From Promethearchaeota archaeon (GTDB lineage Archaea; Asgardarchaeota; Lokiarchaeia; Sigyniarchaeales; SOKP01), in NCBI GenBank assembly GCA_048939995.1, contig JBHLOY010000001.1, forward strand, positions 224,001 through 288,000: a DNA stretch of 64,000 nt, written 5' to 3'. Below the pieces are notes generated by a model that saw only the letters and a program-made list of their open reading frames with translations, was not told the origin of the DNA and did not search any database. Positions 43,307 through 60,673 of this stretch are shown in pieces (the first letter of the stretch is position 1; every line of letters starts with the position of its first letter). The translations under genes and the position numbers were made by a program.

Positions 43307-44599
43307 TTATTGCTTATATCTAAAAAGTCTTCTTGATTCGCTATCTTCTAGAACATAGTTCGATCCCCCTCCATGTACCATACAATAGGGGTCAAGAAGT
43401 CCGATTTCATTAGCATATTGCCTTGTAAAGCCACGTCCACCCATAGTTCTGAAACAATGTATAGAGGATTCAAACCCTAATTCCGTAGCGCTAACTTTAA
43501 GACCCATGGCATTTACTGCCATTAATTTTGAACTCGCTAATTCGGGATGCTCATCAAGTTGTCGTGCATAATTAAATAAAGCAGAAATGTGTAAGTTTAA
43601 TTCGCGAATTTTTTCCGAAATAGGATATCTTATAACCTGATATTGATGTAATCTTTTTTCGAATTGTACACGTTGTAAGGCATATGCATGAGAATATAAT
43701 AACTTTTTCATTGCGTCCCCTAACGCTTCAGCACTGATAACTAGTCTCTCTTCTGTAAGTTGATGAAAGGCTATATCCAAGCCATGTCCGTTTAAGAGGT
43801 TTTCTTTTGGAATTTCAGTTCCATCAAAGATTAAACGACTTACAAAAGCATCAGTCATTCCATAAGTACTGATTCTTGTGCTTTTAAAATTCTTCAATTC
43901 TTGATGTTCAGTATCAAGTACCACCGCCCCAAGTTCGCCATTATCCAATCTACCATATAAAATGATATAGTCTGCTATCATACCATTGGTGATAAATAAT
44001 TTTTTACCTTTTGCGATTATTTTATCATTTTCTTCATGTAAAGATAATTCCATTCTAAAGATATCTGATCCTGCATTGAATTCTGTCATTGCTGAGGCTC
44101 CAATTTGGCCATCTTTTGCAACAGGAACTAGAAAACTTTCATTTTGCCATTTGTTTGACGCATAATTAACGGGATTGCAATATAATGTACCTCCTGCTAA
44201 TCTTCCCATCTCAACGCTATAATTACCTGCAATATATTTTTCACTATGTTCGCTCCAACGCCCTCCACATAATGCATAAGCAATTAAAGCATTTCTTGTA
44301 ATTCGTCCCACTTCAAATTCTTCAGTATTTAAAATAGTTGAATAATAACCTTTTTCAGCTAGTTTCTTCATAATGCCTATAACAATCTCTTTTTTCTTAT
44401 CTTCTGTAGGTTGTTCTATGTAATAGTTTAATTCCTCTAATTTCCTTAAATCTTTATCAAGTCTATTTTCGAGGAACTCATAAAACTCTGCTAGAAATTC
44501 TTTTTCCTTATCGTTTAGAACTGGATTGTTCAATAAGTCTAGCTCAGGGACATATCTTTGAATTCTTATCTTTTCAAATTCACTGATTCTTGTATCCAT
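43307..44599 (-). CDS. Acyl-CoA dehydrogenase family protein
   Basis: AMTEFNAGSD, GKKLFITNG, LTEERL, YALQRVQFEKRLHQYQVI, MGGRGF, HGGGSN. Confidence 0.92.
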   Translation of the reverse strand: MDTRISEFEKIRIQRYVPELDLLNNPVLNDKEKEFLAEFYEFLENRLDKDLRKLEELNYYIEQPTEDKKKEIVIGIMKKLAEKGYYSTILNTEEFEVGRITRNALIAYALCGGRWSEHSEKYIAGNYSVEMGRLAGGTLYCNPVNYASNKWQNESFLVPVAKDGQIGASAMTEFNAGSDIFRMELSLHEENDKIIAKGKKLFITNGMIADYIILYGRLDNGELGAVVLDTEHQELKNFKSTRISTYGMTDAFVSRLIFDGTEIPKENLLNGHGLDIAFHQLTEERLVISAEALGDAMKKLLYSHAYALQRVQFEKRLHQYQVIRYPISEKIRELNLHISALFNYARQLDEHPELASSKLMAVNAMGLKVSATELGFESSIHCFRTMGGRGFTRQYANEIGLLDPYCMVHGGGSNYVLEDSESRRLFRYKQ

Positions 44600-44763
44600 A
44601 AAAGATCATAAACATTTTTGTAATTTAAAATTAGAATGTTAATTATTAGAAATGTTTTAATCAAAATAAAACATAACAATAAAATATCAGATCTATTAAA
44701 AATATAACTACAAAAACCAAATGAAAGAAAATTAAAGAAAGAAATAATATAATGTGAAAAATA

Positions 44764-46185
44764 ATGATAAAATTTAGTGATAAACAATTAAAGATACCTA
44801 AATTGATGAGACCAGTATATCTGGCTACAGTAGGAATGTCTAAATTTGATAGAGCTTTTCCAGAGACTCGCACTGAAGAGCTTTGCGTTGATGCATTTAC
44901 TGCTGCTGCTGATTTTGTGAATATGACCCCTTCTGAATTAAAAAGTTATATTCATACATGTTATTATGGTCATTTTGCGGATCATTTTGGTGATCAACTC
45001 CTTGGAGAGGCTGTTATTCATGATAGATTAGGTTTAGATCCATTGGGAAATATTGGTGTAAAAACAGGTGGCGCAACTGGAGGATCAGCCATGTGGGAAG
45101 CTGTTAAGACAGTAGCCTCAGGGTATAGTGATTGTGCTCTAGCATTGGGGTGGGAGAGGATGGATGAAGTTCCTACGGATGAGGGAAATCATTTAATTTC
45201 ATGTGCTGCAGACAAGGATTGGGAAACTCCATTAGGTCATATTTATACTGGCTATTATGCTGTAATGGCTCAGAGGTATTGGAAAATATTTGGCAAAGAA
45301 GAACCTTCTTTTAGAGATACAATGGCAGAAATTGCAGTAAAAAATCGTGGATATGCTAGAATGAATCCTCATGCTCAAGGTCCTATGAAGATCACAATAG
45401 AAGATGTTAAAAATTCGCCCATAGTAGCTTATCCTCTAAGAGCTTTAGATTGCTGTTTAATGAGTGTAGGATCTGCATGTGGAATCGTTTGTGATGAGAA
45501 GACAGCTTATGAGATTACAGACAAACCGCTCAGAATTTATATTGCTGCCGGAAGTCACACACTAAGAGTGGCTGATCGAAGAAATATGAATATCCCATTA
45601 TTACCTAATGAAGAACCAGGTCAATATGACAATTTGGGTAAGCAATTTCCAGGAGGAGATCGATATCCTGGTTTCACGGGTTTTTTGGCTGCTCGTATGG
45701 CAGCCTATTATGCTTATAGAATGGCTGGTGTGATGGATCCAACAGATGATTTAGATATTGTTGAATTGCATGATGCATTTACAATCAGTGATATTCAAAC
45801 CTATGAAGATATAGGAATACGACCATATGGTCATGGGCGCGAATATATTGAATCTGGTGATGCTTATGTTATTAATCCAAAAACCAATAAGCCTGGAAAA
45901 TTACCTAGCAATCCATGTGGGGGCCTAATAGGTTGCATGCACGCTGTAGGAGCTACTGGATTAATGCAAATAGCTGAAATCGGTTATCATATATGGAATA
46001 GATGGGATGAAATTCATGAACCAAAAGAAAAATGGAAAGCATTTGATCGTGAAAAGCCAGAAGATTGGACGAGTTTACAAGTCAAAGGTGCTAAGCGTGG
46101 ATTAGCTATAAGTCATGCAGGTGTAGGCTCTCATGTAACTTGTACTATTTTAATGGATCCAAATCATTTAATTAAGGAGGATTGA
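44764..46185 (+). CDS. SCP2-type thiolase-fold protein lacking the N-terminal catalytic Cys
   Basis: VKTGGATGGSA at the usual xCxSG site, GWERM, AVKN, ELHDAFT, NPCGGLIGCMHAVGATG. Confidence 0.88.
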   Translation: MIKFSDKQLKIPKLMRPVYLATVGMSKFDRAFPETRTEELCVDAFTAAADFVNMTPSELKSYIHTCYYGHFADHFGDQLLGEAVIHDRLGLDPLGNIGVKTGGATGGSAMWEAVKTVASGYSDCALALGWERMDEVPTDEGNHLISCAADKDWETPLGHIYTGYYAVMAQRYWKIFGKEEPSFRDTMAEIAVKNRGYARMNPHAQGPMKITIEDVKNSPIVAYPLRALDCCLMSVGSACGIVCDEKTAYEITDKPLRIYIAAGSHTLRVADRRNMNIPLLPNEEPGQYDNLGKQFPGGDRYPGFTGFLAARMAAYYAYRMAGVMDPTDDLDIVELHDAFTISDIQTYEDIGIRPYGHGREYIESGDAYVINPKTNKPGKLPSNPCGGLIGCMHAVGATGLMQIAEIGYHIWNRWDEIHEPKEKWKAFDREKPEDWTSLQVKGAKRGLAISHAGVGSHVTCTILMDPNHLIKED

Positions 46186-46189
46186 AAAG

Positions 46190-46792
46190 ATGCCTAAACT
46201 AGAAGATGAAAAGGGATTTGTTAAAATTGTGAAAGGAAAGTATAAACCTCGAGGGAAATTTCATAATATCGAAAAAAATCAACCAATTTATAATGAAGAT
46301 ACAGGAATGTTAGCAGGAGTTACAAATCCAAGAGATATGACCTATATTCATTCATATGGTGGAGAAAGTATCTTTTTTGAATCATTGGGGAAAGGAAAAT
46401 TAATGGCAACCCGTTGTGATAATGATAAATGCGAGTCAAAGGGATCCATCTTTGAACCTTTTAGAATCTACTGTCCTGATTGCTTGAGAAAAGCTACTGT
46501 TGTTGACATTACCCAAAAAGCTCAAGATTCTGCTAAGATTCATTCATTTATTATCACCCATCGTTCAGGAGCTTTTAATACACTTCCTAAACCAATAAAG
46601 TTCATAAACGTTGAGTTTGATGAAGAAGTAGTAACAATTCTTATGAGTGTATTAGTTGTAGGAGAGCCTGAAATTGGAGAAAGAGTCGTACCAATTTTCC
46701 GAACCAAAAGCCCAACTTATACAATTATGGATTTAATGTTTGTTATTAAAGGTACATCTGAGGCAGAGTTACCAGAAGGATTTACTTTCTAG
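46190..46792 (+). CDS. DUF35/ChsH2-type Zn-ribbon plus OB-fold protein
   Basis: FFESLGKGKLMATRCDNDKC...FEPFRIYCPDC, PEIGERVVPIF; immediately after the thiolase. Confidence 0.88.
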   Translation: MPKLEDEKGFVKIVKGKYKPRGKFHNIEKNQPIYNEDTGMLAGVTNPRDMTYIHSYGGESIFFESLGKGKLMATRCDNDKCESKGSIFEPFRIYCPDCLRKATVVDITQKAQDSAKIHSFIITHRSGAFNTLPKPIKFINVEFDEEVVTILMSVLVVGEPEIGERVVPIFRTKSPTYTIMDLMFVIKGTSEAELPEGFTF

Positions 46793-46942
46793 TAAAAAGA
46801 ACTAAACTTTAATTAAAAATTTAATTTAATTTTTCTATTTTCTAATCGTAGAATATTTGTATCTAAAAGATTTTAAGTGATAAAATAGATTATAATTTAT
46901 TTTTTAATAAAATCCAATCCAATTAATTAGAAGTAGATAAAA

Positions 46943-48013
46943 GTGAGTATAAAATTTGGGATTCAACATGGTGCTAATGTTGGAGAATTAGAGTTAAAAA
47001 CTAAGGATTACATTAAATCAATAAATTATGTTGAAAAAGCGGGATACGACTCTATTTTTATTTGGGATCATTTAAATGCGACTAATACTAAAGAAGTTCC
47101 AAGTTGTAGTGTTTTATTAACTGTCACTTCTTTAGAAACAGAGAAAGTAAGGATAGGATCATGTGTTTGTGATTCATATAGGAGACATCCTTCTCAAATA
47201 GCTTTAGATTCACTAACGCTACAAAAAATATCAAATGATAGGTTTATTTTAGGTCTAGGCGCTGGAGAAGTTATGAATTTAAACAATTTCGGAATAAATT
47301 GGAATAAACCAGCTCTAAGATTGAAAGAATCTGTAGAAGTCATAAAGAAATTATGGAGTACAACTCAATCAGAAAATGCAGTTAATTATTCTGGCAGGTT
47401 TTTTAGTTTAGACAATGCTCGTTTACAATACTCAGTGAATCAACTACCTGAGCTTTGGTTAGCTGCAAATGGACCACGATTGATTGAATTTACGGGAAAA
47501 ATTGCTGATGGATGGATTCCTTCTGCTCATAATGCTAAACTATATAAAAAGAACTTGAAAATTTTAGGAAAGGGAGGGAGATTAGATGAAATTGAGAAAG
47601 CTTGTGAAGTTTTTGTAGTAATTAGTAAGGATAATCCCGAATTAGCACGACAGATGGCTCGATTGGGAGGCGCATCAATAAGTGTGAATCCATATATTCT
47701 TGAAGATTTGAATATAAAAATCCCTGATAACATTCCTCATGGTCGTTATTACAAGGAAACAATAAGAGAATTAGAAAGTGAGGAAAAAGCAAAAGAGATT
47801 TCTGAGTTTGCTAAAGAATACATACCTCAAGATGTTATTGATTCAATGATTATCTCTGGAAGCCCAGAAGAATGCATTGAACAAATTGATGAGTATATCA
47901 ATGCTGGCGTAGAACATTTTTTAATTGAAGTTTGGGGGTTAGGGAAATATTTTCAGGCGTTAGAGTTATTTACTGATACTGTATTTAGTTATTTTAAAGA
48001 ACTTTACGATTGA
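46943..48013 (+). CDS. LLM-class (luciferase-like) flavin/F420-dependent oxidoreductase
   Basis: GYDSIFIWDH, RIGSCV, RRHP, RFILGLGAG, LWLAANGP, IADGW, SGSPEEC. Confidence 0.88.
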   Translation: MSIKFGIQHGANVGELELKTKDYIKSINYVEKAGYDSIFIWDHLNATNTKEVPSCSVLLTVTSLETEKVRIGSCVCDSYRRHPSQIALDSLTLQKISNDRFILGLGAGEVMNLNNFGINWNKPALRLKESVEVIKKLWSTTQSENAVNYSGRFFSLDNARLQYSVNQLPELWLAANGPRLIEFTGKIADGWIPSAHNAKLYKKNLKILGKGGRLDEIEKACEVFVVISKDNPELARQMARLGGASISVNPYILEDLNIKIPDNIPHGRYYKETIRELESEEKAKEISEFAKEYIPQDVIDSMIISGSPEECIEQIDEYINAGVEHFLIEVWGLGKYFQALELFTDTVFSYFKELYD

Positions 48014-48185
48014 ATTCGAAGTTAGATTTATTTTAAGGCTTTCAAAATCATTCTTTTTCAATTTTGTAATCTAAATAGCTTAATTCTAAAGAAACCTTTA
48101 TATTTTTTAAATCCGATAAATTATAAACCCTATATATTGAAATAAGATTAATTATAAAATAAAATTAAAATAGAGTGATAAAAAA

Positions 48186-49157
48186 ATGTCTAATGTATTG
48201 ACATCATGGCGTGATAAGTGTATAATTACTTGTGCTCTTACGGGCTCAGCTACAATACCATCTCAAACACCTTATTTACCAATAACTCCTGAAGAGATCG
48301 CTGAAGAAGCTAAAAAAGCATGTGATGCAGGTGCAGCTGTTGTTCATGTTCATGTTAGAGACCCTAAAACTGCTATGCCATCTTCGGATTTGGGGATTTG
48401 GAGAGAGACTCTCGAGAAAATTAAATCTAAAACTAATGTGATAGTTTGTTGCACAACTGGAGGAGGTGCTGGAATGACGGCAGAAGAAAGAATTTCTGTA
48501 GTGCCAGAATTTAAACCAGAGATGTGTTCATTTAATTGTGAATCCATGAATTTTTCAATTTTTCCATTATTGGAAAGAATTCAAGAGTGGAAGTATCCTT
48601 GGGAAAAAGCACTTGTAACTATGAGTAAAGGATTAGTTTTTCAGAATAGTTTTGTAGATTTAGAGAAATTTGTTAAAACCATGTATGAAAATAATGTTAA
48701 ACCTGAACTTGAAATTTACAGCACCAGTGGTCTCTGGAATGCGGGGGCTATGGTTAGATTTGGATGGTTAAAACTTCCTCTTCATATGCAATTTGTATTA
48801 GGAGTATTAGGTGGAACAGGAAACACTCCCTGGGAATTGATGCATTTACATACTGAAGCTTTTAGACTTCTTGGAGAGAGAAATTTCACTTGGTCCGTGA
48901 TTGGGCTAGGATATCCGAGAGAGTTTCATTTAGGAGCAATTTCAGCAACAATGGGTGGCCATATAAGAGTTGGTTTAGAAGATAATATCTCTTTAGGATA
49001 TGATGTTGAAAAGAAGGAACGAATATTGGCGAAAAGTAATGCTGAATTAGTTGAAAAAATGGTAAGAATAGTTAATGACTTGGGGCGTGAAGTAGCTACT
49101 CCTGATGAAGCAAGAAAAATGCTCAAACTTAAAGGTCTTGATAAAGTTAACTATTAA
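48186..49157 (+). CDS. Beta-keto acid cleavage enzyme (Kce/BKACE, DUF849)
   Basis: IITCALTG, LPITPEEIA, AGAAVVHVHVRD, TTGG, PELEIY, GGHIRVGLEDN, SNAELV, ATPDEAR. Confidence 0.95.
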   Translation: MSNVLTSWRDKCIITCALTGSATIPSQTPYLPITPEEIAEEAKKACDAGAAVVHVHVRDPKTAMPSSDLGIWRETLEKIKSKTNVIVCCTTGGGAGMTAEERISVVPEFKPEMCSFNCESMNFSIFPLLERIQEWKYPWEKALVTMSKGLVFQNSFVDLEKFVKTMYENNVKPELEIYSTSGLWNAGAMVRFGWLKLPLHMQFVLGVLGGTGNTPWELMHLHTEAFRLLGERNFTWSVIGLGYPREFHLGAISATMGGHIRVGLEDNISLGYDVEKKERILAKSNAELVEKMVRIVNDLGREVATPDEARKMLKLKGLDKVNY

Positions 49158-49337
49158 AATTAGGAGATTTTTTCTTTTTTTTATTTTAAACAAAACTGTT
49201 AAAGATCTTGCCAGAAAGTTAAATCATCACAGATTTATCATATTCTATTTATCTAATTAAAAATTATTAATATAAGATTCTATCAATAATATATTAATTT
49301 CAATTTAAATGACTAAAAAGTAATTAGGTAAGTCAAG

Positions 49338-50480
49338 ATGGATAAAGTTGCGATAGTAGGAGTTGCTCAAACTAAATATGAAGCAGAGAAGATAGATCAA
49401 ACATATATGGAGCTTGTCTTTGAAGTTGTAAAGAAATTATATAATGATCTAGGAATAATTAATGATGATGTTGGGTCTGTTATAACAAGTTCAAACGATT
49501 TTAATGATGGTAGAACTATTGCTAATATGGGAATTCAAGATGCTGTAGGATCAATTGGAAAATCAGAATCTAGAGTCTCTGGTGATGGTGCTTTTGCGTA
49601 TGTTTATGCTGCAATGAGAATACTATCTAGAGAATATGACACTGTAATGGTTGTTTCTCATTGTAAGTGTTCTGAAGTGAATCAGTATCTTGTAAATAAT
49701 ACTATTTTTGATCCATATTATCAAAGACATTTAGGTTTAGATCAAATCTCTTCTGCTGGCTTAATGGCAAATATGTATATGACAAAATATGGCATAACTA
49801 AAGAACAGGCAGCCAAAGTGGTAGTAAAGAACAGAAAAAATGCTCTAAATAATCCTTATGCTCACTTACAGAAAGAAGTATCCCGTGAGGAAGTCCTCAA
49901 TTCACCAATGATGGCTTATCCCTTAAAAAAATTAGAATTTCCACCTTTTTCAGATGGTGCAGTTGCAATGTTGTTAACTAATGAGAAAATAGCAAGAAAG
50001 TTCACAGATACTCCTGTATGGTTAAAAGGATATGGAAATTGTACTGATGCATATTATCTAGGACATCGTAATATGACAGACTTGATTGGACTTGAATTAG
50101 CTGCAAAAGAAGCATATAAAATGGCAGATATTAAAAATCCTGTGGAAGAATTAGATGTTGCTGAAGTTTATGATGCTTTTTCGGTTCATGAATTGATGAG
50201 TTATGAAGCTTTGGGTTTCTGTAACAAGGGAAAGGGTGGTGAATTTATGGATAGTGGTCAATCTTATATGAATGGAAATATACCAGTAAATCCCTCAGGA
50301 GGTGTGCTTTCAAGTAATCCAACAATGGCAAATGGTCTGATTCGCGTAGCAGAAATTGCTCTCCAATTAATGGGTAAAGCTGATAAGAGACAGATTAATG
50401 GTGCTAAAATAGGTTTAGCAAATGGCATGAATGGAATATGTTCCCAAGGAAATTGCGTTTTAATTTTTGGAGGTGAATAA
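49338..50480 (+). CDS. Thiolase-fold protein, Ltp4-like (non-thiolytic, aldolase-type)
   Basis: SSNDFNDGR, ESRVSGDGAFA (no Cys), FDPYY, SDGA, LGHRN, EVYDAF, NPSGGVLSSNPTMANGLIR, GICSQGNCV. Confidence 0.85.
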   Translation: MDKVAIVGVAQTKYEAEKIDQTYMELVFEVVKKLYNDLGIINDDVGSVITSSNDFNDGRTIANMGIQDAVGSIGKSESRVSGDGAFAYVYAAMRILSREYDTVMVVSHCKCSEVNQYLVNNTIFDPYYQRHLGLDQISSAGLMANMYMTKYGITKEQAAKVVVKNRKNALNNPYAHLQKEVSREEVLNSPMMAYPLKKLEFPPFSDGAVAMLLTNEKIARKFTDTPVWLKGYGNCTDAYYLGHRNMTDLIGLELAAKEAYKMADIKNPVEELDVAEVYDAFSVHELMSYEALGFCNKGKGGEFMDSGQSYMNGNIPVNPSGGVLSSNPTMANGLIRVAEIALQLMGKADKRQINGAKIGLANGMNGICSQGNCVLIFGGE

Positions 50481-50484
50481 GAGA

Positions 50485-51651
50485 ATGGCTAAAAATGATG
50501 TGGCTATTGTTGGGATAGGGCAAACAAAATTTAGAAGTAAACGGAGAGATGTAAATATTCCTGAAATGATCTATGAAGCCACAAAAATGGCTTTGGATGA
50601 TGCTCAACTTGAACCTAAAGATATTGACGCCATAATTATTGGCAATATGGACCATTTTGAAGGAGTTAATTTCTCAGAAATGTGGTGTGGAATTGATGCA
50701 GCACCAGGTTATTTAAAGCCAGTTGTTAAAGTTGCAACAGGTGGTACAACTGGAAGTTCATTAGCAATTTGCGGATATTATAATGTTGCTTCAGGAATTT
50801 ATGATAAAGTACTGGTTATTGGGTGGGAAAAATTAAATGAAGGAGGAGCAACAACAGGGATCATTACCGCTTTTGATCCCGTTTGGGAAAGACCATCATT
50901 AGCAGGAGCTTTAGGTCCTTTGGCTCTTATGGCAAGTACCTACGCAGCAAAATACGGAATAACACCAGAACAAGCTGCAAAAGTAACAGTTAAAAATAGA
51001 AGTAATGCAGCAAACAATCCATTTGCTCATCTACAAATGCCTAATATCACTGTAGATTATGTAATGAGCTCTCAATTGATATCTCCTCCTTTAAGACTGC
51101 ATGATTGCTGCCCTCAGAGTGAAGGTGCTTGCGCAATTATTTATGCTAATAAGGAAGAAACGAAGAAGATAAGAGACAACCCCGCGTGGGTTCATTCAGT
51201 TGCAACAGCTCATTATTATACTTATGGAACCGATACATTAATGTACGATTTGCCTTCAGCAACCATAGCTGCAAAAGTGGCTTATAAAAAGGCTGGGATT
51301 AAAGATCCCGTTAAAGATTTAGACGTTGCTGAAATTTATGAACCTACTTCTTGGAGCGAGTTAGCATGGACAGAAGGTCTACTTTTCTGTGAAAAGGGAG
51401 AGGGTGGGAAAATACTAGATGAAGGAATTACTCAAATGAGCGGTGAATTACCTGTTAATCCATCAGGTGGCGTTTTAAGTACTAATCCCATTGGGGCCAC
51501 AGCTTTAGTACGAGTAGCAGAAGCAGCAACCCAAGTAATGGGTAGAGGTGAAAAGAGACAAGTCCCAGAAGTAGAGAAAGCTCTTTCTATGGGATTTGGA
51601 GGAAGTTTATGGACTGAATTATTAATATTAGGTAAAGAACCAATGAGGTGA
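50485..51651 (+). CDS. Thiolase-fold protein, Ltp3-like (non-thiolytic, aldolase-type)
   Basis: GIGQTKFRSKRRDV, DHFEGV, KVATGGTTGSS (no Cys), GWEK, NPFAHLQ, CPQSEGAC, EIYEPTSWSELAW, NPSGGVLSTNPIGAT. SD GGAGGTGA at 50469-76, ATG 50485. Confidence 0.88.
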   Translation: MAKNDVAIVGIGQTKFRSKRRDVNIPEMIYEATKMALDDAQLEPKDIDAIIIGNMDHFEGVNFSEMWCGIDAAPGYLKPVVKVATGGTTGSSLAICGYYNVASGIYDKVLVIGWEKLNEGGATTGIITAFDPVWERPSLAGALGPLALMASTYAAKYGITPEQAAKVTVKNRSNAANNPFAHLQMPNITVDYVMSSQLISPPLRLHDCCPQSEGACAIIYANKEETKKIRDNPAWVHSVATAHYYTYGTDTLMYDLPSATIAAKVAYKKAGIKDPVKDLDVAEIYEPTSWSELAWTEGLLFCEKGEGGKILDEGITQMSGELPVNPSGGVLSTNPIGATALVRVAEAATQVMGRGEKRQVPEVEKALSMGFGGSLWTELLILGKEPMR

Positions 51652-51656
51652 ACTTA

Positions 51657-52145
51657 ATGAGTAAAAAGAAAAACCAAGAAAAAGTATTTGAGATAAAATG
51701 GAAAACAGATCTACCATATCGATATTCAATTGGAAAACTCGCTGTCAAGTTTTTTGAAGAACTAAAAATGAATAAGAAAATTTTAGGTAGTAAGTGTTCA
51801 AAATGCGGTAAGGTTCACTTTCCTCCAAGAGCCGTATGCGCAGATTGTTTAGTTGAGATGACTATTAAAGATATGGTGGAATTGTCCACAAGAGGTACTT
51901 TAGCAGGGTTTACAGTTGTAAATTATCCTTTTATTGACCCCAATACAGGTGGTATGCGCCCATTTCCTTATGGTTATGCTATATTCAAGTTAGATGGGGC
52001 AGATACATATACTATGCATTTCTTGGATGAAACCGATCATACCAAAATGCGTGTTGGCCAGCGAGTTGAGGCTGTATTCAAAGAGGAAAGAGAAGGAAAT
52101 ATCGGTGATATTCCATACTTTAGAATTATAAAGGAGGAAAAATAA
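51657..52145 (+). CDS. DUF35/ChsH2-type Zn-ribbon plus OB-fold protein
   Basis: GSKCSKCGKVHFPPRAVCADC, LDGADT, MRVGQRVEAVF. SD GAGGTGA at 51645-51. Confidence 0.92.
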   Translation: MSKKKNQEKVFEIKWKTDLPYRYSIGKLAVKFFEELKMNKKILGSKCSKCGKVHFPPRAVCADCLVEMTIKDMVELSTRGTLAGFTVVNYPFIDPNTGGMRPFPYGYAIFKLDGADTYTMHFLDETDHTKMRVGQRVEAVFKEEREGNIGDIPYFRIIKEEK

Positions 52146-52158
52146 CGAGGTGAATCTA

Positions 52159-52608
52159 ATGGGAGAAGAGATTGAAAAGAAAATATTTAAAGGAAGGATT
52201 AAAGTTCCTTACAAACATACTGCTGGGGCTTATGTAGAGAAGTTTATTACACATATTGGAAAGGAACATAAAATTATGGGAGTTAAGTGCCCAAAATGCA
52301 AAAAAGTGTTTGTTCCTCCAAAAATGATATGTTTTGAATGCTTTGAAAAAATGGAAGAATGGATTGAAGTAGAAAATATTGGCACAGTGACAGGTTTCAC
52401 TGTTATTACGCATTCTACACCTGTGTTGCCATTGGAATCCCCCTTTGCTTATGCCAGAATTAGATTAAACGGCGCAGATACCGATTTTGTACATTTGATA
52501 AATGAAAGTGATCCTAATAAGTTACGCGTTGGTATGAAAGTTGAAGCTGTTTTTAAAGAAAAACCAAGAAAAAGAATCTTAGATATTGAGTATTTTAAAC
52601 CAATATAA
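52159..52608 (+). CDS. DUF35/ChsH2-type Zn-ribbon plus OB-fold protein (tandem paralogue)
   Basis: GVKCPKCKKVFVPPKMICFEC, LNGADT, LRVGMKVEAVF. SD GAGGTGA at 52147-53. Confidence 0.92.
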   Translation: MGEEIEKKIFKGRIKVPYKHTAGAYVEKFITHIGKEHKIMGVKCPKCKKVFVPPKMICFECFEKMEEWIEVENIGTVTGFTVITHSTPVLPLESPFAYARIRLNGADTDFVHLINESDPNKLRVGMKVEAVFKEKPRKRILDIEYFKPI

Positions 52609-52678: not shown

Positions 52679-53503
52679 ATGAGTGAAAATGTTATCTTAA
52701 TTGAAGAGGATGAGGATAAAACTATTACAACCATAAAAATGAATCGGATTGCGAAAAAGAATGCAATCAATTATGATTTAATGGTAGGTCTTCAAAAAGC
52801 TATAGATCAAGTGGAACGCTCTGATACAAGGGTTGTCATCATCACTGGTGGAGATGAATTATTTAGCTCTGGAATTGATTTAAACTTCCTAACTGGGCAA
52901 GAAAAAGATCCTGAGGGCGTAATACCTGATTTACGAGTTCCAAGAAATTTCAGATACTTTGCTAATACATGGATTCATTCAATATTCACAAAAATTGAAA
53001 AAATGGAAAAACCAGTAATCGCTAAAATCAACGGTTATTGCTTTGGAATGGCATTTGAGCTTGCTTTGGCGTGTGACTTTCGATTTTGCACCGAATCGGC
53101 TCAATTTCACATGCTTGAAAGTAAGATCGGTATGAACCCAGATGTGGGGGGTACAATAAGGTTAACAAGGCTTGTAGGTATTCAAAATGCTAAAGATATA
53201 ATTTTAACTGGACGTATGTTTGATGGAAATGAAGCTTATAGATTAGGAGTCGTAAATCGAGTAACTAAAACACACCAAGAATTAGATTCTATAATTAAAA
53301 TGTATACAGATGAGCTTATAGACAGCGCACCTCTAGCTGTAGGGCTTACTAAAAAATTAATTGATGATTGTTATGGCAAGGATACTGCTTTTGGACTAGA
53401 GCTTGAAACTTTGGTAAGTTCACAATTGCTTCAAACAAAAGATGCTGTATCTGGAGCTTTAGCAAGATTACAGAAAACAAAACCAAAATGGAAATGGAAA
53501 TAA
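52679..53503 (+). CDS. Enoyl-CoA hydratase/isomerase family protein
   Basis: MNRIAKKNA, FSSGIDL, KPVIAKINGYCFGMAFELALACDFR, ESKIGMNPDVGG. Confidence 0.93.
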   Translation: MSENVILIEEDEDKTITTIKMNRIAKKNAINYDLMVGLQKAIDQVERSDTRVVIITGGDELFSSGIDLNFLTGQEKDPEGVIPDLRVPRNFRYFANTWIHSIFTKIEKMEKPVIAKINGYCFGMAFELALACDFRFCTESAQFHMLESKIGMNPDVGGTIRLTRLVGIQNAKDIILTGRMFDGNEAYRLGVVNRVTKTHQELDSIIKMYTDELIDSAPLAVGLTKKLIDDCYGKDTAFGLELETLVSSQLLQTKDAVSGALARLQKTKPKWKWK

Positions 53504-53525: not shown

Positions 53526-53528
53526 AGA

Positions 53529-54728
53529 TTAAAAGTCAACATCCTTACCTTCAAATGCATATTTGTAGATGTTTTCAAAGTCCGCTTTGGAAGGTAGTCT
53601 TGGACACATAGAGCCGCTGGCATCTTGGAAGCATAAATTAACTAAGGTGTCGAGGTTTTTATCTAAATCTTCTCTTGAAATACCTATATCTTGAATTTTT
53701 TCTGGAAATCCCACCTCTCTATAGAGCTCTTTTAATTTTTTTAGAACCATATTAGCCGCTGTTTTATCACCCTCGTCCCATTTAGCCCAGCCAAGTTGTT
53801 TTGCCAGTTTCGCATAAATTTCAGTTGATGGATCGGTTTTATCAGGGTTGTTCAAACAATATTGCGTTACATATTTCAACATTAGTCCTACACATCTACC
53901 GTGAGGAGTTTGAAATACAGCACCAAGGCAATGTCCAGTAGTATGCCCTATATGTAAATTAGCATTCCCAAATGCTAATCCTCCCATTGTTGCAGCTTGA
54001 TGGAGATAGTCTCGAGCTTCCTTATTTTTTCCATTCTTATAAGCAATAGGTAGGTAACTAAATATCAGTTCTATGGCTTTAGTAGCTAAAGCATTACCAA
54101 ATTCGTTTCTCCCATTTGCAATCAATGCTTCAATTGCATGTGCTAATACATCCATTGCAGTATCTAGAGTTAGACTCGAAGGCATACCTAATGGAAAAAT
54201 AGGATCTAATATAGAATAAGTGGGAACTAATCCTCTATGAGCTTGAATTAATTTTTGCCACACACCATCATTATATCTTGAAATAACTGCTGCATAAGTT
54301 GCATCAGCTCCTGTTCCAGAAGTAGTAGGAATGGCGATCAATTTAGCTTTTTTCCCCAATTCATATAGAGAAATATTAAAAATATGAAGATCATCTATCC
54401 CAAATTCTGGAAACTCGTACATGGCCCAAACTCCCTTTGCAGTATCTATAACAGACCCTCCTCCCAACGCGATAATTAAATCTGGTTTATAGGTTAAACA
54501 GGATTCCTTAGCTTTTAGCAGTATTTCTTCTTTTGGGTCAGGTTCAACTTCAGTAAATAATTCGGAAACTTTTCCTAATTTATCCAATTTATTTGTCAAA
54601 ATTTTAGTATAACCTAAACTTTCTATATTCTTGTCAGTAATTATAAAACATTTACCTCCTGCAATATTTTCCAAAAAATCTAACGCATCTTCTCCATAGA
54701 CAATATTAGGACTATTAAAAAACCACAT
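53529..54728 (-). CDS. Iron-containing (group III) alcohol dehydrogenase
   Basis: VEPDP, IIALGGGSVIDTAK, IPTTSGTG, DVLAHAIE, GHTTGH, PHG. ATG 54728 follows a GAGTGA SD. Confidence 0.93.
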   Translation of the reverse strand: MWFFNSPNIVYGEDALDFLENIAGGKCFIITDKNIESLGYTKILTNKLDKLGKVSELFTEVEPDPKEEILLKAKESCLTYKPDLIIALGGGSVIDTAKGVWAMYEFPEFGIDDLHIFNISLYELGKKAKLIAIPTTSGTGADATYAAVISRYNDGVWQKLIQAHRGLVPTYSILDPIFPLGMPSSLTLDTAMDVLAHAIEALIANGRNEFGNALATKAIELIFSYLPIAYKNGKNKEARDYLHQAATMGGLAFGNANLHIGHTTGHCLGAVFQTPHGRCVGLMLKYVTQYCLNNPDKTDPSTEIYAKLAKQLGWAKWDEGDKTAANMVLKKLKELYREVGFPEKIQDIGISREDLDKNLDTLVNLCFQDASGSMCPRLPSKADFENIYKYAFEGKDVDF

Positions 54729-54797
54729 ATAAAATATCACTCATCAATTTTAATTTTCATAAAAATTAATTATTTAAAAAGAAAATAGTTTAAAAAG

Positions 54798-55199
54798 TTA
54801 TAAAAATTCAGTTTCGACTCTTTGTAAGCTATTTACGATTTCTTGAGCAGCTCTAGTGGCTCGCATCAATTTTGCCATATTTCCTACTAGTCTTAGTTTC
54901 CCAGACATTACTCCTTGAATAGTATCTAATTCTTTTTTAGCAATCTTAACCCAGTTATCATAGGGTCCAGAAAGTGTAAATTCTACATCCATTTTCTCAC
55001 CTTCCTCTAATAGTTTAACACTAGTGCATTCTCCGTGATAAAGTCCAAGAAAAAATCTGACTTCATGATCTAAGGGACCACTAGGTTCGATTACACATAA
55101 CATATCTCCTTCCCACCATGATGCGGCTTCACTATAGGCAGGATTATCGTTAATGGCCTTTCCAAAATCATCTAACCACTCTTTTGTTAAAATTTTCAT
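54798..55199 (-). CDS. SCP2 sterol/lipid-binding domain protein
   Basis: EWLDDFGKAIN, W.GD, FTLSGPYDNW, GVMSGKLRLVGNMAKLMR. Confidence 0.9.
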   Translation of the reverse strand: MKILTKEWLDDFGKAINDNPAYSEAASWWEGDMLCVIEPSGPLDHEVRFFLGLYHGECTSVKLLEEGEKMDVEFTLSGPYDNWVKIAKKELDTIQGVMSGKLRLVGNMAKLMRATRAAQEIVNSLQRVETEFL

Positions 55200-55276
55200 T
55201 AATATCCACCTAATAAAATATATTTCCTTATTTTATTTTTAAATATTTAATATTTTATAGTATTTATCAAAATGGG

Positions 55277-56473
55277 TTAGGTTAAAGTTAAATCAAGATG
55301 GATATCTGTTAAAGGATAAGAGACACAGGGATGAATAAATCCAAAATCCTTGTCAACTTCACGGATAGTGACCCAAGGAGGTACAAAAATTTTTCCAGAG
55401 ATCAATTTTGTTCTGCATAATGCACACTCTCCTGAACGACAGCCATTTGCAATTCCAATCCCCGGTAATTTTAGACGTTCTATACTATTTAGAAGTGGTT
55501 CTATACAAGAAGCTTTAAATTCTATTTTTTCAGCAGCACTACCTTTCCTAAGATCAATTTCTATTTTAATCTCCTGTGAAGCATCAACTTCTTTTGGCCA
55601 TCCCATAATTTGGGCTATATCTTCTGGAATTCCAAATGCTTCATAATAGATTTTATGTTCTGGCACCCCTATAGTACTCATTTCAGCTTTAATAAATTCA
55701 TACATAGGAAGATTTCCTACAACATAGAAATACTTGTTCTTTATTGAACCTATCTCATTTAAAATCTTATCTTTTGTAATGAAGCCGCATTCTCCACTCC
55801 AATCAGGCTCTGGTTCAGATAATATGAATTTTATCCTTATATTTGTCCTTCTTTTTTGAATATCTTCTAATTCATCTCTAAAGAGAATATCTTTTTCAGT
55901 TAAACAGCCATAAATCAGTGAAATATTCAATGGTAAAGCTTTCTCAGAGATGTCTCTTAGCATCGAAATAAATGGAGTTATCCCGCATCCTCCAGCGATA
56001 AATACAAGATGATCTCCATGAAAGAGAGGGTTATAAAATAAGTTTCCTAAAGGTTCAGTTGCTTCATAAATATCTCCGATCTTTGCAGATTCGAATAAGT
56101 AAGGACTAACAAAGCCACCTTGCTTCTTTCTAATGCCTAACTCATAATAAGCAAGTTGATTAGGTGATGATACTAATGAATAAGGACGTGATGTTCTGAC
56201 TCCATCAATTTCCAAAGTAACACCTATGTATTGGCCCGCCCGAAATGGTGCTAAAGCCTTTTTTGGTTTCGCTGATATAAATCGAAATAATTTTGTATCA
56301 TGAGAAAGGTCTTCAATATCAGTTAGTTTTAGTAATTGATTTCCAGGATGTATTCTTTCACATAAATTTTCTAAACCATCAAAATACCAAGGAATTGGTT
56401 GAATTTCTTCACGCAACTTTTTCAATTTTTCAGCTTTTTGATATTTCTTTATATCTTCCATCATGTTTACCAT
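55277..56473 (-). CDS. FAD/NAD(P)-binding FNR-type reductase with C-terminal 2Fe-2S ferredoxin (KshB/PaaE/Hcr architecture)
   Basis: FRAGQY, RPYSLVSSP, GGFVS, IAGGCGITPFISM, YEAFG, CRSGECALC...HPC. Confidence 0.92.
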   Translation of the reverse strand: MVNMMEDIKKYQKAEKLKKLREEIQPIPWYFDGLENLCERIHPGNQLLKLTDIEDLSHDTKLFRFISAKPKKALAPFRAGQYIGVTLEIDGVRTSRPYSLVSSPNQLAYYELGIRKKQGGFVSPYLFESAKIGDIYEATEPLGNLFYNPLFHGDHLVFIAGGCGITPFISMLRDISEKALPLNISLIYGCLTEKDILFRDELEDIQKRRTNIRIKFILSEPEPDWSGECGFITKDKILNEIGSIKNKYFYVVGNLPMYEFIKAEMSTIGVPEHKIYYEAFGIPEDIAQIMGWPKEVDASQEIKIEIDLRKGSAAEKIEFKASCIEPLLNSIERLKLPGIGIANGCRSGECALCRTKLISGKIFVPPWVTIREVDKDFGFIHPCVSYPLTDIHLDLTLT

Positions 56474-58020
56474 CTCCCTTCGATTTTATCTTTTAAATAA
56501 ATCCCTGAAGCAATCCTACCTCCAAGTATGGTGGAAGAAAAACCACCTCCAAAATTTGTCCATGCACCTACTTGATAAAGTCCAGGAATTGCCCCTCTAC
56601 TAGTTAATCTAAATAATGGCCCGTTAGTGACATCTTGAGTTGTACCATAAATAGCACCTTCAAGATTCTTCGAATATCGGTAGTATGTTAGAGGACTTGC
56701 TGCTACAGCAACTTCTATATAGTCTCGGATTTCTGGACATATTGTTTCTTCCACTAATGAGATCATACCATCCGCGATTTCATCCTTAAGCTGAAAGTAT
56801 TGATCTGGGGGGACACTTTGCCATAGTTTACCCATTTGTAAAGTAGTTAATACAAGTTGTGTTGTCCCAGGAGGTGATATATCCTCATAAATATGATTAT
56901 AGCAGGCCGCTACGATATATTTCGGTACCTCTAATTTGTGAAACATTTCATATGCTTCATTCATATTGTAACTATTATTGATGAAGGTCTCGTGAGCAGT
57001 TAAGCCCAAGTCTTTATAAGAAGCGTTCAGTCCAATATAAACTGAGAATCCTGAGGGTCCAATCTCAGGGGTATAAATTTTTTTCTTGTATTCTTCAGGA
57101 ACAGTCTCAGGTGGTAACATTTTCATTGTAGTACATATTGGGTTAACATTAGAAATCAGTGCCTTACACTTGTAAATGTCTCCATTAATCAATTCCACAC
57201 CGCAAACTCTTCCATTTTCTACTAATACCTTATTTACTAAAGCATTATATCTTATTTCTCCGCTAAACTTTTCAAATGCTTCGACCATTGCGTTTACTAA
57301 TGAATGAGATCTTCCCATAGGAAATGCTGCGCCCCATTTTAAATAAAAGATTAACATGGCAATAAAGGCATATGCATTTAATCTATCTGGTGGTAATCCA
57401 ACGTATCCCCAAAGTTGTGAAATTAGAGCAATCAACTTCTTGTCAGTAAAGAATTTTGAGTATAATTCAGATAAGGTAATACCAGAGACACGTGGAAGCC
57501 AAGGATGATCTTTAAGAACTTCTTGAGGCTTGAATTTCCCTCTTTTTGAAGCAACATATTCAATTCCTCTTAATACCGCTTTACACATCTCCATGAATTC
57601 TTCTATACCTTTTTTTTCGGAAGGAAAAAGCTCAATTAATTTTGCAGTGTATTCTTCTACACCCAATGGCATTGTAATGTCAAATCCATCGAGAAATACA
57701 CTTCTATAAAATTCTGGCACTTGTTTAAATTGTAATCTATCCGGAATAATTTCTAATCTCTCTAAAAAGCGATATAAACTGCCTTTATTATCTTTTGTGC
57801 CTATATCACTAAGTTCATGAAGTGCACCTTCAAATTCGAATCTTCCTCGTACGAAAGAAGTAGCAAAACCTCCTGGAACATTATGTTTTTCGAGTAATAA
57901 AACTTTTTCTCCTCTTAATACCAATTGACATGCTGCACCAAGTCCTCCAAGTCCAGCTCCAACAACTATAACTGGATATGTAGAAATAACTCTATTCTCA
58001 TCATAAGTACTATTTATCAT
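56467..58020 (-). CDS. Phytoene desaturase/retinol saturase (CrtI/RetSat)-family FAD oxidoreductase
   Basis: VVGAGLGGL, LLEKHNVPGGFATSFVRGRFEFE, FPMGRS, ASPLTYYRYS...GAIYG, IPGLYQVGAW..GGG. Confidence 0.88.
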   Translation of the reverse strand: MINSTYDENRVISTYPVIVVGAGLGGLGAACQLVLRGEKVLLLEKHNVPGGFATSFVRGRFEFEGALHELSDIGTKDNKGSLYRFLERLEIIPDRLQFKQVPEFYRSVFLDGFDITMPLGVEEYTAKLIELFPSEKKGIEEFMEMCKAVLRGIEYVASKRGKFKPQEVLKDHPWLPRVSGITLSELYSKFFTDKKLIALISQLWGYVGLPPDRLNAYAFIAMLIFYLKWGAAFPMGRSHSLVNAMVEAFEKFSGEIRYNALVNKVLVENGRVCGVELINGDIYKCKALISNVNPICTTMKMLPPETVPEEYKKKIYTPEIGPSGFSVYIGLNASYKDLGLTAHETFINNSYNMNEAYEMFHKLEVPKYIVAACYNHIYEDISPPGTTQLVLTTLQMGKLWQSVPPDQYFQLKDEIADGMISLVEETICPEIRDYIEVAVAASPLTYYRYSKNLEGAIYGTTQDVTNGPLFRLTSRGAIPGLYQVGAWTNFGGGFSSTILGGRIASGIYLKDKIEGRW

Positions 58021-58094
58021 TAAAGATCATTCTATCAGATAACATATAAAATTATAGATTTAATTCTGATTTTTACATTTTAGGAAATCAGAAA

Positions 58095-58910
58095 CTACCT
58101 ACCAATAAAATTGGGAGCTCTTTTTTCCTTTAGTGCTTGCATTGATTCATTAAAGTCTTTCGACGTGAAGCTTTTTCTTAGAGCTTTATTCTCTATATCC
58201 AGGGTCTTTGAAAGGATTTCTCTGAAATAACTATGCATTGTTTTTTTCATTAATTTTATCGATAAGTAGGGCCCTTTAGGAGGAATTAATCGTAAAGCTT
58301 GTTCTCTAGCGTAAGGAATCAATTTATCAGTTGGTAATACTTTATTTATTAAACCTAGCTCGTATGCTTGCTGAGCTGTGATTTTATCTCCGAAATATAC
58401 GATTTCTTTAGCTTTTTGAAAACCTAAATAAAATGGTAGTATAAAAGAGTTGGCAAATTCTGGAATTATCCCTCTTTTAACAAAAAAGAATCCGAGCCAT
58501 GCATCCTCAGACATATAAATTAGATCAGCACCAGCAAGTGGCATAGTAATGCCCCCTCCAATTGCCATTCCATTAATGGCAACAATAACGGGCTTATTGA
58601 AGTCCCAAAGTTTCATACATAATGTTTTCTGTGCAATATCCATAATATTAATTTCTGGATATTTCTTCATTTCTTCAAACATTTCAAGCTTAAAAAAACC
58701 ACCAGAAGTAAAAGCTTTCCCTTTAGGATCTCCAGTAATTATCAAGACTTTACTACTTTTATCTCCTTCCATATCTTCTAAAATAGTGTATAGTTCCAGA
58801 AATGTAATGTAAGTAACAGCATTTCTTCTTTCAGGTTTAGAAATGGTTGCAGTACATATTCCATTATCTTCTTTTTTATAAATTATGTCTTGAAAGTCAT
58901 CAATATTCAT
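58095..58910 (-). CDS. Enoyl-CoA hydratase/isomerase family protein
   Basis: KPERRNA, AFTSGG, KPVIVAINGMAIGGGITM, FVKRGIIPE. Confidence 0.92.
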   Translation of the reverse strand: MNIDDFQDIIYKKEDNGICTATISKPERRNAVTYITFLELYTILEDMEGDKSSKVLIITGDPKGKAFTSGGFFKLEMFEEMKKYPEINIMDIAQKTLCMKLWDFNKPVIVAINGMAIGGGITMPLAGADLIYMSEDAWLGFFFVKRGIIPEFANSFILPFYLGFQKAKEIVYFGDKITAQQAYELGLINKVLPTDKLIPYAREQALRLIPPKGPYLSIKLMKKTMHSYFREILSKTLDIENKALRKSFTSKDFNESMQALKEKRAPNFIGR

Positions 58911-58975
58911 TTTTGTGATAAAAACTAGAATGTATATACTATTTCAATAAAATAAAAAAAATTAAAAGAATTGGT

Positions 58976-60673
58976 TTAATCTTCACGTAATGCTCTTTTC
59001 AAAACTTTTCCTACCGTAGTTAAAGGCAACTCTTCTCTGAATTCCCAAATCTTTGGGACTTCATACTTTGAAAGATTTTCTTCTGCGTACTTTTGAATAC
59101 TTGCTTTTACTTCATCAGTTGCAGTCACACCTTCCTTTAACTGAATAACTGCTTTTACTATTTCAGCTCCGGGTCGATCGGGGTTCGGTACTCCAATTAT
59201 TGCTAGGATAGCTATGTCGGGATGTTTAGTCATAACTTCTTCTACGTGAACGCTGTAGACCTTAAAACCACTAACGATTAGCATATCTTTTGTACGATCT
59301 ACAATCTTCAAATATCCCTCTTCATCGAAGACACCTACATCTCCAGTATGAACGTAGCCCTCGTTATCAAAGGTTTTCGCTGTCGCTTCAGGTTTATTAT
59401 GATATCTTTTTGTGACTTGAGGTCCTTTGATTAGGATTTCACCAGGAGTCCCAATACCTACTTTTTCACCTGTTTCTACATCAACAAGCTTAATATCCGT
59501 ATCAGGTAGAGGTAACCCCACTGTTCCTATTTTCTTTTCTCCAAACATTGGATTTACAGTAGCCAGTACTGCTGTTTCAGTCATTCCATAGACCTCAACA
59601 AATTTGTTCTGAGAATGAAACTGCTTTTCAAATTGTCTTATCGCTTCAGGAGGAAATGGAGCGGCTCCACTAACATACAGAGTGATATTGTCTAATACTT
59701 CAGGTGGAATATCTTTTGACTTTGGATTTTGTTGAACCATTAAGAAGAGAGTTGGTACATTGCCAAAACTAGAAGGCTTCTTATCAATGAGTTCTTTAAT
59801 AATGTGATCAGTATCTCTCGGATTTGCGATTATAATCTGAGTTCCGCCAATATAATTCAAGAACAATCCAATAAAGTATCCTGCAATGTGGAAATAAGGA
59901 AATGCAGATAACGTAATCTCTTTTCCTTTTTCTCTATTAAGCCAAGTATCGAATTGATGCATGTTTGAAACCAAGTTAGCATGTACTATTTCAGTTCCTT
60001 TAGGAAGACCTGTCGTTCCTCCTGTATATTGAATTAATGCTAAATCAGTCTTGGGATCAATGTTCACTGGTTTTAAATCTATTTCAATATTAATAGCATC
60101 TAAAAATGGAACTACTGTTTTCCCTGGCCATGGTGTCATCTTTCCTTTAGGGATTTTTTTTATCAATTTTCCCATGAATACTTTAAATCCAGAAAAACCC
60201 ATGAATTCAGAAACATTAGTAGGAACAATTACCTGCAAATTTGGTAACCTGTCTAAAAATTTACTAAAGATTTTTTCATAAATAATGTCCATAGTTACAG
60301 CAACTTTAGCATTACAATCCCCAAGTTGATAAGCCATCTCTTCGGGACTTAAGAGTGGAGAACACCCAGAGACTGTTCCACCTGCAATATAGGTCCCATA
60401 AGCGGCAAATAAAAATTGAGGTGTATTTGGAAGACAAATAGCAACTACATCACCCTTTTGTAGCCCATTTTTTTGTAAAAAAGTCCCAAATTTCTGAGCG
60501 TATTCTAAAATTTCAGAAAAAGTGAAAGAACGATCCATAAAATGAAATCCTATTCTATCAGAATATGTGGTCATAGTTTCAGTTAAAATTGTCCCAAGAT
60601 CCTTATTTGGGTATGTTAAAGTGGATGGAACATGTTTATCATACGATTTCAACCAAAATTTTTCACTACTCAT
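58976..60673 (-). CDS. fadD: Long-chain fatty-acid--CoA ligase (AMP-binding)
   Basis: QYTGGTTGLPKG, YGMTE, HTGDVG, IVDRTKDM, LPLTTVGKVL. Confidence 0.9.
   Translation of the reverse strand: MSSEKFWLKSYDKHVPSTLTYPNKDLGTILTETMTTYSDRIGFHFMDRSFTFSEILEYAQKFGTFLQKNGLQKGDVVAICLPNTPQFLFAAYGTYIAGGTVSGCSPLLSPEEMAYQLGDCNAKVAVTMDIIYEKIFSKFLDRLPNLQVIVPTNVSEFMGFSGFKVFMGKLIKKIPKGKMTPWPGKTVVPFLDAINIEIDLKPVNIDPKTDLALIQYTGGTTGLPKGTEIVHANLVSNMHQFDTWLNREKGKEITLSAFPYFHIAGYFIGLFLNYIGGTQIIIANPRDTDHIIKELIDKKPSSFGNVPTLFLMVQQNPKSKDIPPEVLDNITLYVSGAAPFPPEAIRQFEKQFHSQNKFVEVYGMTETAVLATVNPMFGEKKIGTVGLPLPDTDIKLVDVETGEKVGIGTPGEILIKGPQVTKRYHNKPEATAKTFDNEGYVHTGDVGVFDEEGYLKIVDRTKDMLIVSGFKVYSVHVEEVMTKHPDIAILAIIGVPNPDRPGAEIVKAVIQLKEGVTATDEVKASIQKYAEENLSKYEVPKIWEFREELPLTTVGKVLKRALRED

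Follow-up and report, generated by a model that had tools for sequence, protein, structure and literature searches.

The subject of this analysis is an island of 16 genes at positions 43307-60673 of a 64,000-nucleotide stretch of DNA ("the window"; contig JBHLOY010000001.1, positions 224,001 to 288,000) from an Asgard archaeon. We give an even chance to the view that the products of this island degrade, without oxygen, a hydrophobic, branched, unsaturated chain at which ordinary beta-oxidation would stop, and that the island joins two separable modules. An entry module is built on a flavoprotein of carotenoid-desaturase fold and its reductase, and a cleavage module is built on thiolase-fold proteins that lack the nucleophilic cysteine. 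The host belongs to the Lokiarchaeia, since its closest loci carry the Promethearchaeota label, and this agrees with the Asgard origin proposed by a sequence-only reading of the same DNA. The 16 open reading frames listed in that reading are all in place and lie in convergent blocks, with an acyl-CoA dehydrogenase (ACAD) on the minus strand followed by nine genes on the plus strand and six on the minus strand, the two blocks meeting at 53503/53529. Gene junctions range from -14 to +4 nucleotides (overlap or gap) in ThlX-DUF35a, ThlA-ThlB-DUF35b-DUF35c and the flavoprotein-reductase pair.

At the center of the cleavage module are two tandem genes, ThlA (49338..50480, plus strand, 380 amino acids) and ThlB (50467..51651, plus strand, 394 amino acids, the true start probably being the ATG at 50485), whose products are quite likely to form an aldol-type lyase. 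A third thiolase-fold protein, ThlX (44764..46185, plus strand, 473 amino acids), lies near the PRK06365 family (675.6 bits against a cut-off of 695). The earlier claim that all three lack the nucleophilic cysteine is borne out by alignments to solved thiolases, in which this residue is replaced by Gly103 in ThlX, by a shortened SGDGA loop in ThlA and by Gly93 in ThlB. The acid/base cysteine is gone as well, with HDAF, YDAF and YEPT standing where thiolases have HDCF, and both histidines are kept only in ThlX, alongside a noncanonical Cys391. None of the three proteins has the cysteine of the CxS motif, nor the second set of thiolase residues (HDCF, or a C-terminal CxG cysteine with the GHP histidine). 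The same trait runs through the genome, where seven of the eight archaeal-type thiolase-fold proteins are without the nucleophilic cysteine (the loci include C11, C28:113662-116066 and C38:30078) and only the one at C13:218663 has both the cysteine and HDCF. A further Ltp4/Ltp3-like pair, again accompanied by two DUF35 genes, is located at C28.

ThlA and ThlB, identified by family search and motifs, belong to the broad Ltp3/Ltp4 family of cysteine-less heteromeric pairs, as had been proposed, and the tandem order, the two DUF35 units and the shared motifs are all present. Among the proteins of the genome, ThlB comes closest to Ltp3 of actinobacterial sterol loci (41-42% identity), and ThlA ranks first or second for Ltp4 (26-30%). 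Across 45 family members, Gly93 and Asn340 of ThlB are invariant and Tyr291 is kept in at least 90%. Tyr291 aligns with the histidine of the HDCF motif, a position that reads YDHF in Ltp2 and YDCY in Sal, the tyrosine of which is the proven base (PMC12329534). ThlA has neither cysteine nor histidine, and its Tyr278 is not conserved in its family, so ThlB is likely the catalytic and ThlA the structural subunit. From these residues, ThlB is the probable retro-aldolase active site; ThlX has no tyrosine at the position of the base.

Comparison with solved systems places the pair among known lyases. Ltp2-ChsH2(DUF35) (PDB 6ok1) and Sal-Shy(DUF35) (PDB 9myr) share with ThlB the thiolase fold (TM 0.82-0.83), glycine in place of cysteine, tyrosine at the base position and a DUF35 partner. 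However, the island protein is only 24-27% identical to them, reads YEPT rather than YDHF or YDCY, would work as part of a heteromeric pair and has DUF35 proteins that are not fused to a MaoC hydratase. The closest solved sequences and folds are those of the archaeal thiolase/DUF35 complexes (PDB 6esq; Saci_1121/1120), but 6esq has the cysteine and HDCF, both of which are missing from the island proteins. The modeled ThlB fold scores TM 0.82-0.90 to thiolases and aldolases alike and does not separate the two functions.

In a tree, ThlB groups with proteins of Methanolliviera, Bacillota, Spirochaetota and Acidobacteriota and of assemblies without a name (support 100/97). Forcing the Asgard proteins together with actinobacterial Ltp3 is rejected by the approximately unbiased (AU) test (p=0.0003), the tested group having been named after a first tree. 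The pair shares with Ltp3-Ltp4 of Rhodococcus and Mycobacterium, which act on C24-branched sterol side chains (PMC6678751), the families, the gene order, the number of DUF35 units and the motifs around Gly93, Tyr291 and Asn340. It differs in belonging to a clade of anaerobes, in falling under the family cut-offs and in the added BKACE gene and flavoprotein-reductase pair. The NCBIfam models PRK08313 and PRK07937 give 373 against a cut-off of 514 and 192 against 419, while the Tsukamurella Ltp3 and Ltp4 controls pass at 734 and 593. The cluster probably works like the Ltp3-Ltp4, Ltp2 and Sal aldolases and is not a member of the sterol pathway.

The island is conserved and is not a random collection of genes. 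An orthologue of ThlB occurs in 41 of the 91 genomes of the host's Lokiarchaeia family and in 5 of the 6 genomes of one other Asgard family (Freyarchaeota by their names), and in none of the other 28 families sampled. The synteny that the sequence-only reading proposed to check is conserved. Eighteen Lokiarchaeia loci, chosen by ThlB and taken with about 10 kb on each side, were compared gene by gene; they are kin, and the counts describe rather than test. A BKACE and orthologues of the reductase and of the second DUF35 gene are each found in 17 of these loci, the flavoprotein in 16, each crotonase in 14 and the ACAD in 13. ThlX and its DUF35 partner are found in 10, the iron-type alcohol dehydrogenase (Fe-ADH) in 9, SCP2 and the FadD-type ligase in 8 each (the last partly cut by the flank) and the LLM-family gene in 3. 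Gene order and membership are kept at 60-90% identity across the family. In some genomes, the ThlX-DUF35a slot holds instead a cysteine-less pair of the PRK06066/PRK06065 type with two DUF35 genes, and the loci of relatives may also carry AOR, an OYE reductase, a second ligase or a class III aminotransferase. The GC content of the island is 34% compared to 30% in the rest of the window, and recent horizontal acquisition was considered, but the long conservation within the family argues against it.

The entry module is defined by the CrtI/CrtISO-fold flavoprotein (56467..58020, minus strand) and a reductase with FAD, NAD(P) and 2Fe-2S domains and a conserved N-terminal docking segment (55277..56473, minus strand; single copy in the genome). 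Their genes overlap by 7 nucleotides and are adjacent in every intact locus seen, including those away from the island. A model of the complex scores 0.87, against 0.18 for the best of three controls; of 80 solved complexes, 58 score at or above the mark that was applied, as do 2 of 110 mismatched pairs, a rough calibration from our own alignments. At least 94% of contacts agree between runs, and the pLDDT of the partners is at least 86. The modeled interface is formed by the conserved stretch 3-42 of the reductase together with its 2Fe-2S domain, which is in contact with the flavoprotein. The model supports binding of the reductase by the flavoprotein. The closest solved folds to the flavoprotein are carotenoid desaturases; searches of the PDB gave only distant single-protein relatives, and the ESM Atlas returned generic phytoene-dehydrogenase names only.

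Retinol saturase is one of the known systems closest to the pair. Another is CtmAB of Castellaniella defragrans, which with CtmEF (a 2Fe-2S ferredoxin and a reductase) hydroxylates the allylic methyl group of limonene, ahead of an alcohol dehydrogenase, an aldehyde dehydrogenase and a CoA ligase, and so starts anaerobic terpene breakdown (PMC4109377). Like CtmAB/CtmEF, the island combines a flavoprotein of this family with a 2Fe-2S electron partner, followed by an alcohol dehydrogenase and a CoA ligase. In contrast, it has one flavoprotein instead of two, and its ferredoxin and reductase are fused and carry the docking segment. In an anaerobic host, and with electrons exchanged with NAD(P)H, the pair would be at least as likely to reduce a double bond as to hydroxylate. 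As a separate observation, in a locus of the Candidatus Lokiarchaeum ossiferum type (L123:8782-12734) a Rieske/VanA-type gene adjoins the pair in head-to-head orientation, with a tocopherol-cyclase-like gene nearby, and the reductase might there also serve the Rieske protein.

BKACE (48186..49157, plus strand) passes the Pfam PF05853 cut-off with 323 bits. The metal and catalytic residues of the family (DUF849; PDB 3lot), namely His-x-His, Arg and Glu-Asp, are all kept, with His54, His56, Arg261 and Glu265 intact. It falls under the cut-offs of all four substrate-defined NCBIfam models, the best being the 3,5-dioxohexanoate type (351 bits against 430). A role in lysine fermentation was rejected, since the marker Glu is missing and that signature is carried by a different gene, C17:107317. 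Across the 17 loci that have a BKACE, its site is occupied by at least three paralogues, mutually 36-41% identical. In Freyarchaeota, BKACE flanks two paralogous modules, and the island protein is 81% identical to the BKACEs beside the same module there.

The substrates of BKACE are a free beta-keto acid and acetyl-CoA. Its link to the thiolase-fold proteins is seen in fusions of DUF35 to BKACE, which make up more than 80 sequence clusters in anaerobic bacteria. In four bacterial loci, one operon holds a cysteine-less pair, SCP2-SCP2-DUF35, DUF35-BKACE, (ECH), (FadD), (CoA transferase), a second pair with two DUF35 genes, TetR, ACADs and MaoC. The members of the latter pair share 41% and 49% identity with ThlA and ThlB, and the pair is the sister group of the Asgard one. 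The island's own adaptors are DUF35b (51648..52145, plus strand), a zinc ribbon and OB fold recognized by Pfam and fused to the next DUF35 in L071, and DUF35c (52150..52608, plus strand), which is 45% identical to the DUF35 part of the bacterial fusions. Since DUF35 domains dock partner enzymes onto thiolase-fold proteins (PMC12329534), the fusion suggests that BKACE may act on the product of the thiolase-fold lyase. The nonthiolytic cleavage with BKACE that was foreseen in the earlier reading is supported by this fusion and by the synteny.

From these observations, we infer the reactions, the order of the steps and the substrate as follows. In the entry module, the flavoprotein and its bound NAD(P)H/FAD/2Fe-2S reductase would alter an allylic position, by saturation or by hydroxylation as in CtmAB. 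Fe-ADH (53529..54740, minus strand), a gene often found beside AOR, would together with an AOR convert the alcohol to the acid, an entry route already suggested from the sequence and supported by AOR genes within the cluster of several relatives. An AMP-forming acyl-CoA ligase of the long-chain FadD type (58976..60673, minus strand, by family comparison) would form the CoA ester, with SCP2 (54798..55199, minus strand) as the lipid carrier. In the cleavage module, the ACAD (43307..44599, minus strand), a divergent 430-amino-acid type recognized by Pfam and by alignment to solved ACADs, would act with a hydratase to give a 3-hydroxyacyl-CoA. The catalytic Glu of this ACAD is at the IVD/LCAD position (LTEERL, E284), and the MCAD position has none. 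The hydratase is the crotonase at 52679..53503 (plus strand), which has both catalytic Glu residues (E127, E147). The ThlA-ThlB heteromer with its two DUF35 adaptors would then cut the C2-C3 bond by retro-aldol cleavage, with Tyr291 of ThlB as the base, to release acetyl- or propionyl-CoA and a carbonyl compound. ThlX with DUF35a (46190..46792, plus strand) may do the same to another intermediate. DUF35a starts 4 nucleotides after ThlX and has four zinc cysteines; it matches PF01796 at E=0.003, under the cut-off, and matches another DUF35 of the same genome. BKACE would finally turn a free beta-keto acid and acetyl-CoA into a shorter acyl-CoA and acetoacetate without ATP.

A second crotonase (58095..58910, minus strand) is without both hydratase Glu residues and has Glu151 in a PEF motif; from its family motifs, it is probably an enoyl-CoA isomerase. 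Along with the IVD/LCAD-type Glu, SCP2, the long-chain ligase and the carotenoid-enzyme fold, it points to a long, branched, unsaturated chain. A branched hydrophobic substrate is thus slightly favored. An acyclic isoprenoid, such as phytol, a polyprenol or an archaeal lipid chain, is the leading candidate, although a tentative one. In Caldisphaera (L096:3456-15057), genes for an Ltp4/Ltp3-like pair, DUF35, ACAD, acetone carboxylase and acetoacetate-CoA ligase follow one another and may make up an aldol route that takes a short 3-methyl-branched acyl-CoA through acetone; this would fit a 3-methyl-branched substrate being cut to a ketone. One could go further and imagine, doubtful as this is, that Loki-type Asgards recycle isoprenoid chains (phytol, polyprenols and archaeal membrane chains) by a biotin-free route not described so far. 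The two-subunit flavin/2Fe-2S enzyme would act along with the oxidation of alcohol and aldehyde, acetyl-CoA would be split off by retro-aldol cleavage wherever a 3-methyl branch occurs, the resulting ketone would be carboxylated in those genomes that have a homologue of acetone carboxylase, and BKACE would return the product to the CoA pool. If true, most Asgard thiolase/DUF35 pairs would be C-C lyases and not fatty-acid synthases.

Several points weigh against the two-module pathway as proposed. Its main weakness is that the step making the free beta-keto acid for BKACE is not accounted for here. The published Ltp3-Ltp4 route yields both BKACE substrates after carboxylation and hydration, and its product needs re-thioesterification (PMC6678751), but the biotin carboxyltransferase (PF01039) was not found in the host genome and is absent from 37 of the 38 genomes of the genus; removal of the branch by carboxylation of the Atu or Ltp3/4 type is therefore ruled out for this genome. 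An acetone carboxylase could convert a methyl ketone to a BKACE substrate, and its ABC operon is present in 28 of the 42 island carriers checked. However, it was not found in the host genome, which is 98% complete, is absent from 14 of the 42 carriers and is unlinked to the island in relatives, and an obligatory role is thus ruled out as well. The ABC operon (L149:8904-13808 and L150-L155) is found in about half of the family genomes, with a strong match to solved alpha subunits and with varied neighbors. In favor of the pathway, an acetoacetate-CoA ligase homologue is encoded in the host genome. In ThlB, the YEPT motif is without the His or Cys of YDHF and YDCY, and no equivalent of the general acid (Tyr344 in Ltp2, Cys304 in Sal) was identified. 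The flavoprotein is only 17-25% identical to carotenoid enzymes, its likeness to CtmAB and RetSat being drawn from fold and partner, and for none of the island enzymes is there a close homologue with a known substrate. The two modules also occur apart: the flavoprotein-reductase pair is present in 55 of the 91 family genomes, some of them without ThlB, and was not found in the Freyarchaeota, which have ThlB.

The likeliest of the other explanations is an aldehyde cycle of the Sal type, which we consider unlikely. Here secondary 3-hydroxyacyl-CoAs, straight or 2-methyl, would be cut to an aldehyde and acetyl- or propionyl-CoA; the aldehyde would be oxidized by AOR, with ferredoxin, to an acid that is re-activated by FadD or by a CoA transferase, with no carboxylase needed. 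Sal does yield an aldehyde from a secondary 3-hydroxyacyl-CoA (PMC12329534), and the earlier statement that retro-aldol chemistry implies tertiary alcohols is thus too narrow. Sterolibacterium, moreover, replaces 3-hydroxyacyl-CoA dehydrogenase (HADH) and thiolase by aldolases and an aldehyde dehydrogenase (PMC6678751), and AOR, Fe-ADH and SCP2 are in the cluster in several relatives of a host in whose genome no carboxylase was found. Such a cycle would leave the tight BKACE link and the DUF35-BKACE fusion unexplained, and most loci, this island among them, have no AOR. For plain chains, moreover, HADH and classical thiolases are already available in the genome. The observation that no canonical thiolase or HADH lies inside the island is correct, but it says little, since six genes for HADH, four for classical-type thiolase homologues and 11 for AOR are present in the genome, with one HADH gene in the window itself (3452-4651, minus strand), 39 kb from the island.

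It is improbable that the island trims side chains in the manner of the actinobacterial Ltp3-Ltp4, with sterols, bile acids or hopanoic acids as substrates. This would account for the match of ThlB and ThlA to Ltp3 and Ltp4, their shared gene order and the two DUF35 units, and for the SCP2 domains and the OYE (top models include BaiCD) in related loci; acids with a free side-chain carboxyl would require no attack on the rings. Against it stand the AU test and the missed NCBIfam cut-offs, and beyond ltp3, ltp4 and DUF35 the likeness to the actinobacterial sterol locus breaks down. The hydratase is not EchA19 (166 against a cut-off of 400) and the ligase is not FadD19, the actinobacterial versions of both having their best matches elsewhere in the genome, and the LLM protein is not of the Rv3520c family (92 against 335). 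Degradation of sterol or hopanoid rings has no support genome-wide, where a search for KstD yields only FAD-motif matches of 28 bits or less, Cyp125 has no match and the three molybdopterin proteins, at 431-678 amino acids, are not of the size of steroid C25 dehydrogenase. No enzyme of the KstD/AcmB type was thus recovered in the genome, KshA and AtcABC not having been searched for. The biotin carboxylase needed by the published Ltp3/4 route (PMC6678751) was not found.

Little probability is also given to the cleavage module opening CoA esters of alicyclic or ring-derived (di)carboxylic acids. Here a substrate that is cyclic or of the 3-hydroxy-3-alkylglutaryl type would directly yield both compounds used by BKACE, acetyl-CoA and a free beta-keto acid. 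This would explain the coupling of aldolase and BKACE without a carboxylase; sister modules are accompanied by genes for acyl-CoA mutase, OYE, CoA transferase and MaoC, and a few Asgard loci include a class III aminotransferase, an enzyme that can produce beta-keto acids. However, no ring-activating enzyme is a fixed neighbor, and the long-chain FadD, SCP2 and the carotenoid-type flavoprotein indicate a long hydrophobic chain. Finally, synthesis of fatty acids by the thiolase/DUF35 pairs (as Saci_1121/1120), such pairs being abundant in Asgards and read as a sign of synthesis (bioRxiv 10.1101/2024.07.05.601840), or a chance collection of paralogues in a genome with 12 ACAD, 17 crotonase and 16 ligase homologues, is very improbable and largely refuted by the three proteins without the nucleophilic cysteine, the catabolic neighbors and the conserved order and membership.

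The significance of the two-module pathway lies in the fact that little is known of how anaerobes cut methyl-branched lipids when neither oxygen nor biotin carboxylases are used, and the cluster names the proteins with which this can be assayed. In it, a thiolase-fold lyase is coupled to BKACE, and there is in addition a CrtI-fold oxidoreductase of two subunits without a characterized counterpart. It also bears on the lipid-divide debate, in which Asgard thiolase/DUF35 pairs have been counted toward fatty-acid synthesis (bioRxiv 10.1101/2024.07.05.601840), yet most such proteins of this genome are without the nucleophilic cysteine. A literature search, which took in only a minority of subscription papers, found no paper describing the cluster or linking BKACE to DUF35 or thiolase-fold lyases and nothing relevant on phytol decarboxymethylation or Asgard aldolase pathways.

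The remaining gene of the island encodes an LLM-family oxidoreductase (46943..48013, plus strand), probably F420-dependent, and F420 ligase genes were found in the genome (assembly 3.75 Mb, contamination 5%). It is an accessory gene of one sub-clade, whose genomes are without acetone carboxylase and whose BKACE (the LLM and BKACE genes here span window 46943-49157) has been swapped for one 81% identical to Freyarchaeota copies; this is a single event and so provides no test. Scans for promoters, terminators and repeats gave nothing above chance (68 sites compared to 76 expected) except for the likeness of paralogues. To the left, genes for a FAD glycerol-3-phosphate dehydrogenase-like protein, a methyltransferase and an RNase H-like protein (window 39687-43104) are the usual neighbors in relatives and are probably context rather than pathway. 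To the right, the cluster extends beyond the end of the window with an SCP2-like gene, a DUF35 gene and a fourth cysteine-less thiolase-fold gene (G000:C11:288482-290615; L031:4483-6616). In some relatives these adjoin FadD, and the ABC transporter at window 60822-64000 thus appears to split two parts of one cluster. Elsewhere in the genome, G000:C28:10000-25235 holds paralogues of the island SCP2 (55%) and Fe-ADH (62%), together with the AOR that most resembles the one linked to the island in relatives. At G000:C13:172038-179668, putative benzoyl-CoA reductase or 2-hydroxyacyl-CoA dehydratase subunits were recognized by eye, along with crotonases.

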